DNA of 64,000 nt from Candidatus Latescibacterota bacterium (lineage in GTDB: Bacteria > Latescibacterota > UBA2968 > UBA8231), in the NCBI GenBank assembly GCA_965206595.1, contig OZ242214.1, positions 256,001-320,000 of the forward strand, in the 5' to 3' direction. Within the stretch, counting starts at the first letter, position 1. Every line of letters begins with the position of its first letter. This document shows positions 161-1,767 of this stretch, piece by piece. The position numbers and the translations under genes were made by a program. The notes under the pieces were generated by a model that was not told the origin of the DNA, did not search any database, and was given only the letters and a program-made list of their open reading frames with translations.

Positions 161-189
161 TCGCCAAACGAAAGCAACTGTCTTGAAAC

Positions 190-1155
190 TCAAGAGGAAT
201 GACCGGCGATTTGGGGACTCGGGTCGCGCCAGGGCGAGCCATGCTTGAGCATGGAGTTGAGGATAACCAGCAGCTTACGCATGCAGGCTGTGAGAGCCAG
301 CTTCTTGGGCTTACCGGCGGCCAGCAGCCGCTGGTAGAAGTCGCGGATGACGGGGTTGAAGCGGCTGGCTACCAACGCGCCCATGTACAGGGCGGCGCGG
401 ACCCGGGCGCGTCCGCCCCAGACGATGCGTTTGCCCCGCAGGGTGCCGCTGTCCCGGTTGAAGGGAGCCACCCCTACCAGGGCGGCGATCTGCCGCCGGT
501 CCAGGGTGCCCAGTTCCGGCAGATAGGCCACCAGGGTGAGGGAGAGCTGCTCTCCCACGCCGGGGACGCTACGCAGCAGGTTATCCTTCTCTCGCCAGAC
601 GGGACTCTGGCGGAGCGTCTGCCGCAGACTCTTGTCCAAGTCGTCCAGCTCCCGCTCCAGCCATGCCATGTGGGCCTCGATGTGGGGACGGACGGCCAGG
701 GTGGCGGCGGAGCTGAGGCGGTTCTTCTCCGAGACCAGCATGGTCATCACCTGGTGCCTGCGGGCCGCCAGGGAGTTGAGGACCTGGGTTTCGGCGTCTC
801 GAAGAGGACGCACGGGAGGTTGGACGGCTTCGGCGAAGTGAGCCAGAACCGCCGCATCCAGCGCGTCGGTCTTGGCCAGCTTCCCGGTGGCCCTGGCAAA
901 GTCCCGCACCTGGCGGGGGTTGACGACGACCACGGGCAGAGCGTCCGCTGCCAGGGCCGCCACCAGAGGCACCTCCAGGCCCCCCGAAGCCTCCAGCAAG
1001 ACCAGGACGGGATCCAGGGTCTTCAGCCGGGAGACCAGTTTTCGGATCCCTGCCTCGTCACGGGAGACCTCCCATCTGTCGCCGGTGGGACGGACGGCGA
1101 CCTCCACTTGAGCCTTGGCTACATCAATGCCTACGTAGGTTGCTTCCTGCTCCAT
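190..1155 (-). CDS. IS110 family transposase (DEDD recombinase)
   Basis: [38 protein letters not shown] motifs; AGGAGG RBS before ATG at 1155. Confidence 0.95.
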
Positions 1156-1164
1156 GAGTACCTC

Positions 1165-1340
1165 CTGCGAGTGCGGCCCGTCCTTGCACGATGCGGGCTT
1201 GGTTGGCCCAGGCAACTGTTCGGGCTCTATTTCGGGAAGGGGATGCGGCGACCCTCGCTTTCGTACGGTCTCCATGACCCCGGAGAAATCGGTCTGCCTC
1301 ACCCCGACCTGCCTCAGTGAAGTGGTTGGTCCATTACCGA
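1165..1340 (-). ncRNA. Predicted IS110 bridge RNA in the left-end non-coding region (boundaries approximate)
   Basis: Four guides in canonical order: LTG 1282-1290, RTG 1258-1264, LDG 1212-1219, RDG 1183-1189, matching the flanks and the IS ends. Confidence 0.8.
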
Positions 1341-1767
1341 ACCCAAGATACAAGGAGAACTCCCGATGACGTTTAAAATAGCAACCATCGCCCTGTTCAT
1401 CATGCTCGTGGTGAATGGGGCGAAAGCGACTAGTAGTGACGCTGAGAGATTGGCCAAGATGTTTTCCCCTATTTTGGTCCTGACCGAAGAGACCAGCACC
1501 GAATATGACGCGACGGAGCCTATTCGGGTAATCAAGCCGGAACCAGTTGAAATCGTAGGGGCTGGATCAGCTTCGAATATTTGGATCTATGGCAAAGATT
1601 TAGAGGATAGGCTGACAACCAATTCAGGCCCGCATGATGCTTATAGGAATTCAAATGGGGAATATTTGTCTTTGGAGTTTTTTGAGCATTCTGACGCGAA
1701 CTGCCCAAATGTGAATTTTTCGGAAAATAAGTTTGCCTTTCTTACTTCTCAATGCAGAAGGTATTTA

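Follow-up and report, generated by a model that had tools for sequence, protein, structure and literature searches.

What does an RNA-guided insertion sequence recognise when it lands in a ribosome-binding site (RBS): the working signal, or simply the word that spells it? The question is raised by a 64,000-nucleotide stretch of DNA from a Candidatus Latescibacterota bacterium (contig OZ242214.1, positions 256,001 to 320,000), hereafter the window. Its positions 175-1352 carry, on the minus strand, an intact single IS110-group element flanked at both ends by a CT core (AG on the plus strand), and a first-pass annotation had proposed that the bridge RNA of this element is programmed to target the Shine-Dalgarno (SD) sequence of the gene starting at 1366. 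We consider it very likely, with a probability of about 0.9, that this is an IS110-group DEDD/Ser bridge-recombinase element whose left-end bridge RNA, of about 130-180 nt, matched the SD-like site that the element entered. Judging from the sites occupied by relatives, the guide probably recognises an SD-like word and would not require a working RBS, RBSs being frequent hits but not the sole ones.

The ends of the element could be fixed independently of the first-pass reasoning, because likeness among relatives starts and stops sharply: in alignments it begins precisely at CT/TGTATCTT and finishes precisely at ...CAGTTG/CT (slashes mark boundaries here and below). In element orientation the two junctions read ...GGGAGTTCTC/CT/TGTATCTTGG... 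and ...AAGACAGTTG/CT/TTCGTTTGG. The window sequence and the ends of relatives place the right-end copy of the core at 173-174 and the left-end copy at 1353-1354 (both minus strand), as previously annotated. Outside them lie the right target, TTCGT in element orientation (168-172, minus strand), and the left target, AGTTCTC in the same orientation (1355-1361, minus strand), the latter delimited by the window sequence and guide-flank scoring. Inside, the sequence and a consensus fold identify a non-coding left end of 197 nt (1156-1352, minus strand) that encodes the bridge RNA, and the non-coding right end (175-189, minus strand) is only 15 nt long, includes the left donor ...ACAGTTG and carries a CTTGACTTTCAAGACAGTTG conserved among relatives. 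This is the layout of the IS110 group: a long left end, a short right end, a 2-nt core at both junctions and no terminal inverted repeats. The right end stops at ...GTTG/CT in 64 of 65 parsed elements (GTTC/CT in L030), and the flanks diverge immediately beyond.

The relatives come from a scan of one genome per species, which gave at least 568 related stretches; the best 80 of these, with 76-90% amino-acid identity, were kept, and their record titles are all Dehalococcoidia, Chloroflexota or SAR202 metagenome-assembled genomes. Pattern matching resolved every part in 65 of 81 elements, almost all of which carry the label Dehalococcoidia; the 16 left out were L018, L022, L023, L027, L028, L036, L037, L059, L069, L071-L076 and L082. 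The window element has a G+C content of 65.4%, against 63.7% for its genome. It is single-copy in this 7.05-Mb genome, where a DNA search found no second copy and a protein search gave only one weak match of 54 residues.

What site did the element enter? Removing it at the core rebuilds ACGAAAG/GAGAACT, an SD 8 nt ahead of the ATG at 1366 (counted from GGAG), and leaves a gap of 14 + 11 = 25 nt between this ATG and the upstream open reading frame (ORF; 298 aa), which stops at 158-160. The ORF starting at 1366 has a signal-peptide-like beginning, and the SDs of two paralogues, AAAGGAGAAAA and GAGGGAGAAC, are similar. After insertion, an AAGGAG is re-formed ahead of the downstream gene (1352-1357, plus strand), as the window sequence shows and as had been claimed. 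The guides of the bridge RNA spell ACGAA-AG-GAGAAAT, a purine-rich SD-like word, while the occupied site reads ACGAAAGGAGAACT.

All four guide matches of the first-pass annotation were recovered, in IS621 order and within the left end of an IS110-group element, with one refinement. The left target guide (LTG), G-AUUUCUC-C at 1282-1290 (minus strand), has the same sense as the left target: GGAGAAATC (1282-1290) agrees with GGAGAACTC (1354-1362) at 8 of 9 positions. The first G of this 9-nt guide, however, belongs to the constant stem GCAGACCG, and in the register of the family the window element matches its left target at 6 of 7 non-core positions. The right target guide (RTG), ACGAA followed by AG (1258-1264, minus strand), reads CTTTCGT on the plus strand and is the exact reverse complement of the flank ACGAAAG at 168-174; the right target itself is the exact reverse complement of 1260-1264 and matches at 5 of 5 non-core positions, and the AG, constant in the family, pairs with the core. 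The left donor guide (LDG) ACAGUUGC (1212-1219, minus strand) has the same sense as the right-end terminus, GCAACTGT being present at 1212-1219 and again at 174-181. The right donor guide (RDG), GUGCAAG (1183-1189, minus strand), pairs with the left-end terminus CTTGTAT; the window's CTTGCAC differs from it at two positions, both G:T-compatible, the CTTG is constant, and variation is free at the last two positions. The guides follow the IS621 definition in both strand sense and order: in the excerpted text of PMC11208160, the 5' side of the loop holds the LTG, with the sense of the left target, and the 3' side holds the RTG, complementary to the top strand.

Short matches of this kind call for a control, which the relatives provide. 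No columns of the left end vary more than those of the LTG and RTG, and these track each element's own flanks. Among 50 non-redundant elements, guides and flanks agree on average at 4.78 of 7 non-core positions for the left target and at 4.56 of 5 for the right, against 2.23 and 1.51 in 2290 mismatched pairings. When elements are grouped into 29 guide classes, the mean agreement is 9.53 of 12, against 3.99 (standard deviation 0.41, maximum 5.68) over 2000 permutations of guide classes and flanks; these classes are related by descent, and counts over them are not independent. The matches exceed chance and the window guides are real, because the same alignment columns covary with the flanks of each element. 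Donor guides vary little across the family. The LDG follows changes of the right end in L016/L045, L017, L038, L070 and L079 (three sequence types) and is mismatched in L053/L054, and the RDG covaries with the left end (G to A) in L012, not in L068.

One relative shows a peculiar arrangement: just ahead of the left end of L021, at 2240-2305, the first 66 nt of this element (start of the left end through LTG and core) are repeated without a change. It looks as if a copy had integrated into DNA encoding the LTG of another copy, which inherently resembles a left target.

The guides also sit where a bridge RNA would hold them. In a consensus structure of 46 distinct left ends, they lie in two internal loops, in line with the fold suggested as a check, and RNAalifold predicts the first of these loops. 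The target-binding loop (1241-1304, minus strand) has an outer stem of 1291-1304 with 1241-1253 and an inner hairpin of 1276-1279 with 1267-1270, which are 99-100% paired and include four compensatory pairs. The donor-binding loop (1176-1225, minus strand) has an outer stem of 1221-1225 with 1176-1180 and an inner hairpin of 1206-1210 with 1194-1198 (helices 3 and 4, paired at 93.9% and 98.7%). The full nested model comprises 27 pairs, 98.1% paired, five of them with changes on both sides, and beats all 500 shuffles, in paired cells and in covariation score, as well as all slid controls. In the donor loop GCCC/GGGC occurs twice, and a two-hairpin alternative fits as well, slightly worse (five unpaired cells); the nested form is favoured by one compensatory pair, 138-188, which is GC in 41 sequences and AU in four.

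Could the four guides be chance matches in a GC-rich untranslated region, with the protein alone picking the target? The matches are short (7-9 nt), and the window RNA folded as a single sequence is not unusually stable. However, a chance origin does not account for guides that covary with flanks across 29 classes, for conserved helices with compensatory changes beside the guide columns, or for the homology of the element to IS621, and we regard it as extremely improbable.

As a candidate identity for the RNA we rejected the Rfam family sX15 (RF02234), whose hit lies on the plus strand, antisense to the bridge RNA, at 1190-1320, and scores 31.8 bits against a gathering score of 55. In the available extract of PMC3300014, the Xanthomonas RNA sX15 and its complement asX7 are plasmid-borne, with ten homologues in a Stenotrophomonas chromosome. 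The sX15/asX7 pair may itself correspond to the non-coding end of an IS110-family element.

The protein partner is typical. The coding sequence (CDS) at 190-1155 (minus strand) encodes a transposase of 321 aa plus stop, assigned by Pfam, NCBIfam and alignment to IS621. It matches PF01548 (E = 4.3e-25) and PF02371 (E = 4.7e-20), scores 215 bits against NCBIfam NF033542, 'IS110 family RNA-guided transposase' (cutoff 140), and aligns to the IS621 transposase 8WT6 with E = 9.8e-43. It has an N-terminal RuvC-like DEDD domain and a C-terminal Tnp domain with the catalytic serine: D11, E55, D97, D100 and S236 lie opposite D11, E60, D102, D105 and S241 of IS621, the residues that the part of PMC11208158 at hand names as the active site. 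A GGAGG at 1161-1165 (minus strand), kept as AGGAGG in relatives, provides its RBS. On the opposite strand, an ORF at 199-1320 is in codon register with the transposase; only 1 nt separates its ATG at 199 from a GAGGA, and a TGA at 184-186 is in frame. We rejected this as a counterpart of hed, the antisense gene of IS900, since the codon-aligned antisense frame is open in only 15 of 58 distinct CDSs of relatives.

The two loops may also contact each other's partners. Aligned against the definition in the excerpt of PMC11208158, a candidate handshake guide GA in the donor loop (1181-1182, minus strand) is complementary to target positions 6-7 (TC). This GA faces the TC before the target core, and the C of the target loop faces a G of the donor; in the L044 class both sides of the contact change together, AA occurring with ..GT before the core. 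The two bases past the core-pairing AG in each loop could act as handshake guides, as in IS621.

How would the RNA and the transposase be expressed? A scan of positions 1-1500 found no sigma-70-like promoter and no terminator in the integrated state. The right end carries a -35-like hexamer, TTGAGT (188-193, minus strand; TTGACT or TTGACA in relatives), which overlaps the stop codon, and the left-end terminus a -10-like hexamer, TATCTT (1345-1350, minus strand). Joined in a predicted circle junction, they form TTGAC[TA]-N17-TAT[CG][CT]T, a motif found in 62 of 65 elements, or 63 if the TTGAGT of the window element is counted, which is evidence at the level of the motif only. The spacer is 17 nt in 62 of the 63 matching elements. 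Such a motif, together with the lack of an integrated promoter, fits the habit of the IS110 family to create a promoter upon circle formation, as reported in the excerpted text of PMC11187229. Transcription, circle formation and present-day activity we infer along these lines. By analogy with IS621, the element would leave its site as a circle, whose junction would join the right-end -35 box to the left-end -10 box, 17 nt apart. The resulting promoter would switch on the RNA and the transposase; the two RNA loops would then pair, one to the circle junction and one to a target of 14 nt, and strand exchange by the recombinase would take place at the CT core. Here the target would have been ACGAAAG/GAGAACT, the SD of the gene starting at 1366, which lies antisense to the transposase.

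Is this guide programmed for RBSs, or for a word? That it targets an SD sequence stood up to analysis; that it targets RBSs as such was borne out only in part. The element being single-copy, copies within the genome could not be compared and flanks of relatives were examined instead, where RBS occupancy proved mixed. A crude RBS test asked for a start codon 3-14 nt past the core with an ORF of at least 80 codons. In the host genome, 12 of the 31 closest sites pass, as do 127 of 317 GAAAGGAG sites (40.1%), 18.8% of AGGAG sites and 542 of 4000 random AG sites (13.6%). Among relatives, 10 of 61 sites pass, about the value of random AG. Both the 10 of 61 and the 12 of 31 are weak figures, because the background is high in GC-rich genomes. 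We rejected a stricter test that added an in-frame stop no more than 45 nt upstream, which the window's own site fails.

We then judged site contexts in relatives from ORFs and third-position G+C, gene starts being assigned from ORFs and composition throughout. The 24 loci with SD-like guide classes correspond to 22 distinct sites: five have a start codon 10-12 nt past the core, four lie 37-74 nt upstream of a same-sense ORF, four within a long same-sense ORF, four within or overlapping a long opposite-sense ORF, and in five the context is unclear. Other guide classes behave differently. The left flanks of L077, L078, L080, L081 and L083 read AAGGAGCACCCAAT/AG/ATG, between SD and start, as described for IS900. 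Elsewhere, repeat-like targets recur with extended similarity within one genome (for example AAGGGCGG..ATGTACCACTGGGGCGG and GTAACTGTTC/AG/ACTTGGTGA), in classes L041-L043, L047, L050, L056, L063, L070; L044, L046, L048, L049, L052; and L060-L067. These recurring-target classes therefore aim at repeats or at a multi-copy gene start.

Several observations weigh against our reading, in whole or in part. Seven distinct sites in relatives carry nearly the guides of the window (LTG GTTTCTCC, RTG for CTTTCTGR), and only one of them is a clear RBS; three lie inside long same-sense ORFs, one inside an opposite-sense ORF, and two are unclear intergenic sites. The first-pass annotation had named copies with the same guides at non-RBS sites as what would refute it, and the relatives come close to this situation. 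It had also expected many landing sites, which exist on paper: against the ideal 14-mer, the host genome holds no exact site, two sites 1 base off, 29 two bases off and 178 three bases off. Yet none of the 31 sites with at most two mismatches carries the element, which has remained single-copy. The second core position of the LTG is an unpairable G, as in L020, L032 and L068, and the window element is the only one of 65 with TTGAGT. Covariation in the donor loop is thin, with one compensatory pair only, less than in the target loop. Folded alone, the window RNA is no more stable than shuffled sequences (z = +1.0), and no Rfam family matches it at the gathering score, the sole hit being below threshold. 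Finally, contigs from sequencing runs contain no joint skipping 175-1354, no empty site and no circle junction, a result that does not show their absence; the contig joints listed lie inside the element, with short sides of 21-55 nt, and probably come from other copies, and one run (X7) has no cover over 1361-1600.

The sites inside ORFs occupied by near-identical guides are the reason for reading the target as a word rather than as a working RBS. A rival explanation is that the lineage has adapted to home on RBSs, as proposed for IS900, the SD guide, the orientation and the re-formed AAGGAG having been selected as a safe or useful landing. Its best evidence comes from the host genus. A DNA search of 40 related genomes found two remnants there, a left end standing alone in G002 and a piece of the target loop in G001. 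Both remnants adjoin SDs, AGGAGAAAACATG ahead of a 166-aa ORF and AGGAGGGGGTGACATG ahead of a 306-aa ORF, with the element antisense to the gene in both cases, so that all three elements or remnants found in the genus share one orientation and lie in an SD, with a start codon 5-8 nt further on. The five of 22 SD-like-guide sites with a start codon 10-12 nt past the core, the position of the L077-L083 class between AAGGAG and ATG, and the insertion of IS900 and IS901 between SD and start codon, reported in the excerpted text of PMC2942039 and in the title of Doran 1997, point in the same direction. Against this, four of the seven near-window-guide sites lie inside long ORFs, and the crude criterion gives 10 of 61, about the 13.6% of random AG. 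Both alleles seen of the downstream gene carry a frameshift, and the re-formed SD has thus failed to preserve it. No hed-like antisense gene is conserved (the frame is open in 15 of 58 CDSs, and in the window a stop stands at 184-186), and the guide classes share descent, which deprives the counts of independence. We consider such an adaptation possible but rather unlikely, and retain the reading of an SD-like word.

The fate of the downstream gene deserves a closer look. It encodes a secreted FN3/Calx-beta repeat protein and spans 1366-6359 (plus strand). An 11-bp tandem duplication at 1768-1796 (2.6 copies) breaks it into two ORFs, 1366-1863 and 1752-6359. Taking out one copy of the duplication gives an open frame of 1660 aa, which can be aligned with an intact paralogue at 3,244,151 of the host genome (G000). 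The same insertion occurs in other samples: contigs from sequencing runs of three studies (X1, X4 and X5, of which X1 may be the window's own sample) bridge both its junctions. X1 and X7 carry the form of the window with the 11-bp duplication, whereas X4 and X5 lack the duplication and have one T fewer in the T6 run at 1678-1683, which also breaks the frame (contig depth there is low, 5-8). Two different frameshifts beside the same insertion imply that the insertion is older than both of these independent events, and they speak against the idea that the re-formed AAGGAG kept the downstream gene in use. We found no empty site for comparison, as the downstream region has no orthologue in the 30 relatives searched, which gave paralogous or partial matches only. 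Two paralogous loci were noted in passing: a truncated paralogue of the N-terminus of the downstream gene about 1.1-1.3 kb upstream of the window start (L001, 16-237), and a complete two-gene locus at 3,243,334-3,246,400 of G000 (L091), with a 235-aa gene and an intact 1564-aa gene.

Does the guide-covered word describe the site fully? The occupied site (169-174 and 1355-1371), CGAAAG/GAGAACTCCCGATGACG, equals CGAAAGGAGAACTCCCGATGACG over its full 23 nt, and this sequence is identical to positions 567931-567953 and 2840328-2840350 of G000, where it forms the RBS and first two codons of a histidine-kinase/response-regulator operon. This operon has two copies in the host genome and four near-copies with 1-2 changes in G002 (the loci concerned are L103 and L105-L107). 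Beyond the shared 23 nt the sequences are unrelated. The guides span about 14 of the 23 nt, and the identity runs 9-10 nt past them. Carry-over, deletion fusion and extended recognition were each considered, and none fits well; a carry-over of flanks with a CG core and an origin of the island by deletion fusion were judged unlikely, and inspection by eye found no extended pairing of the bridge RNA with CGTCATCGGG. That site choice uses more than the roughly 14 guide-covered nucleotides, the kinase/regulator RBS family being possibly a home target, through extended recognition or a short piece that travelled or was converted, seems improbable to us. A more specific form, which we find more doubtful still, holds that the element came from the RBS of a kinase/regulator operon carrying a few flanking bases, or recognises more than 14 nt. 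It draws on the identity to two G000 sites with unrelated flanks, and on a control over 17,251 candidate starts, in which none of 294 shared 23-mers was bordered by unrelated sequence on both sides. The island reads CG at each of its borders, and IS110 elements have been reported, in partial source text, to show flexible boundaries and half-match events. However, the canonical CT site fits better (7 of 7 on the right with core, 6 of 7 on the left) than a CG-core site (4 of 8 and 3 of 7); the gene would lack a start codon if the island were absent, yet its N-terminus is as long as that of the paralogue; and relatives sharing guides show no flank similarity beyond the guide-covered bases, except at repeat targets.

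Is the element still alive? It may instead be an inactive relic, which arrived once by horizontal transfer or descent and is now immobile. Such a view would explain why it is single-copy despite 31 near-cognate sites, and would agree with the unique C to G change in the -35 box, the mismatched core position of the LTG and a 1-nt deletion in the inner hairpin loop. The insertion is not recent, given its presence in runs of three studies with different later mutations of the neighbouring gene, and genomes of the same genus hold remnants only: no intact transposase was found in G001, G002 or, in the wider family, G004 at E <= 1e-20. On the other hand, the transposase ORF is intact with all catalytic residues, all helices and the four guides are intact, and agreement between the guides and the occupied site still stands at 6 of 7 and 5 of 5 positions. 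We regard immobility as a tentative alternative, doubtful in view of these intact parts. The same-family genome G004 contains a strongly diverged related element (L095, 1466-1720), with no recognisable CTTGTATC terminus, and this copy is probably dead. In runs X1, X4, X5 and X7, the summed contig depth over window positions 161-1280 ranges from hundreds to tens of thousands, against 3-47 on the flanks, which indicates many related copies, with at least 90% identity, in these metagenomes. Two metatranscriptome runs containing a small share of the stretch are labelled sponge metagenome.

How does the element compare with known systems? Bridge RNAs of IS110 elements are already published (PMC11208160, PMC11208158, as their excerpts show). 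IS621 of E. coli shares with the window element the domain order, catalytic residues, CT core, long left end and short right end. In both, the bridge RNA precedes the transposase and its target loop comes before its donor loop; LTG and LDG have top-strand sense, RTG and RDG are complementary, the core lies within the guides, and handshake positions (candidates in the window element) follow the core-pairing AG. The differences are a distant protein alignment (E about 1e-42 over 309 aa), other guide and donor sequences, the SD-like word that the window element has as its target, and the unpaired second core position in the LTG and LDG of the window element. IS621 reportedly has a promoter split across the circle junction, to which the junction motif of the window element may correspond, and is said to target a repeated extragenic sequence.

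In targeting, the closest parallels are IS900 and IS901 of Mycobacterium avium, which insert at host translation initiation signals, in one orientation and with the transposase antisense to the host gene (PMC8141618 and PMC2942039, excerpted text). The window copy and the two same-genus remnants also lie at initiation signals in a fixed orientation, as do only some sites of more distant relatives. IS900 differs in being described as inserting between SD and start, whereas the window element cuts inside the SD (AAAG/GAG). The consensus reported for IS900, CATGN4-6*CNCCTT, would resemble the CAT-N8-CTC/CT/T of the window. IS900 also carries the full-length antisense ORF hed (excerpt of PMC8141618), unlike the window element, which has no conserved antisense ORF.

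Other members of the family aim elsewhere. ISPpu9, ISPpu10 and further IS110 elements target repetitive extragenic palindromic (REP) sequences, which are short, conserved, multi-copy and intergenic (published abstracts; title of PMC1525189). They share RNA guidance with the window element and differ in targeting these palindromes rather than RBSs, although several of its relatives (the L041, L044, L053 and L060 classes) do target repeats. In IS1111, a DEDD transposase works with seekRNA, a guide RNA from the non-coding region that matches both target strands (PMC11187229, in part). The window element has the same combination but none of three further traits of IS1111: an RNA placed downstream of the transposase, strand matches in the reverse order, and long subterminal inverted repeats.

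Both the mechanism and the RBS-type target were known before, and this locus is a clean natural example of the two together. A literature search, with the supplements of PMC11208160 and PMC8141618 outside its range, found no paper linking the guide to the SD; the terms IS110, Shine-Dalgarno and bridge RNA co-occurred only where the SD concerned a riboswitch. The locus offers a complete and compact natural set: a recombinase of 321 aa, its bridge RNA of about 180 nt, and a donor junction and 14-nt target that are both defined. The naturally reprogrammed guides of about 65 relatives add material for comparing or engineering bridge recombinases. That the downstream gene is broken in different ways in different samples shows that a re-formed SD is no guarantee of a harmless insertion. 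For the IS110 family, a guide that spells an SD is a plain mechanistic reading of why some members land in RBSs, a modest advance, because the link between guide and SD follows directly from published work.

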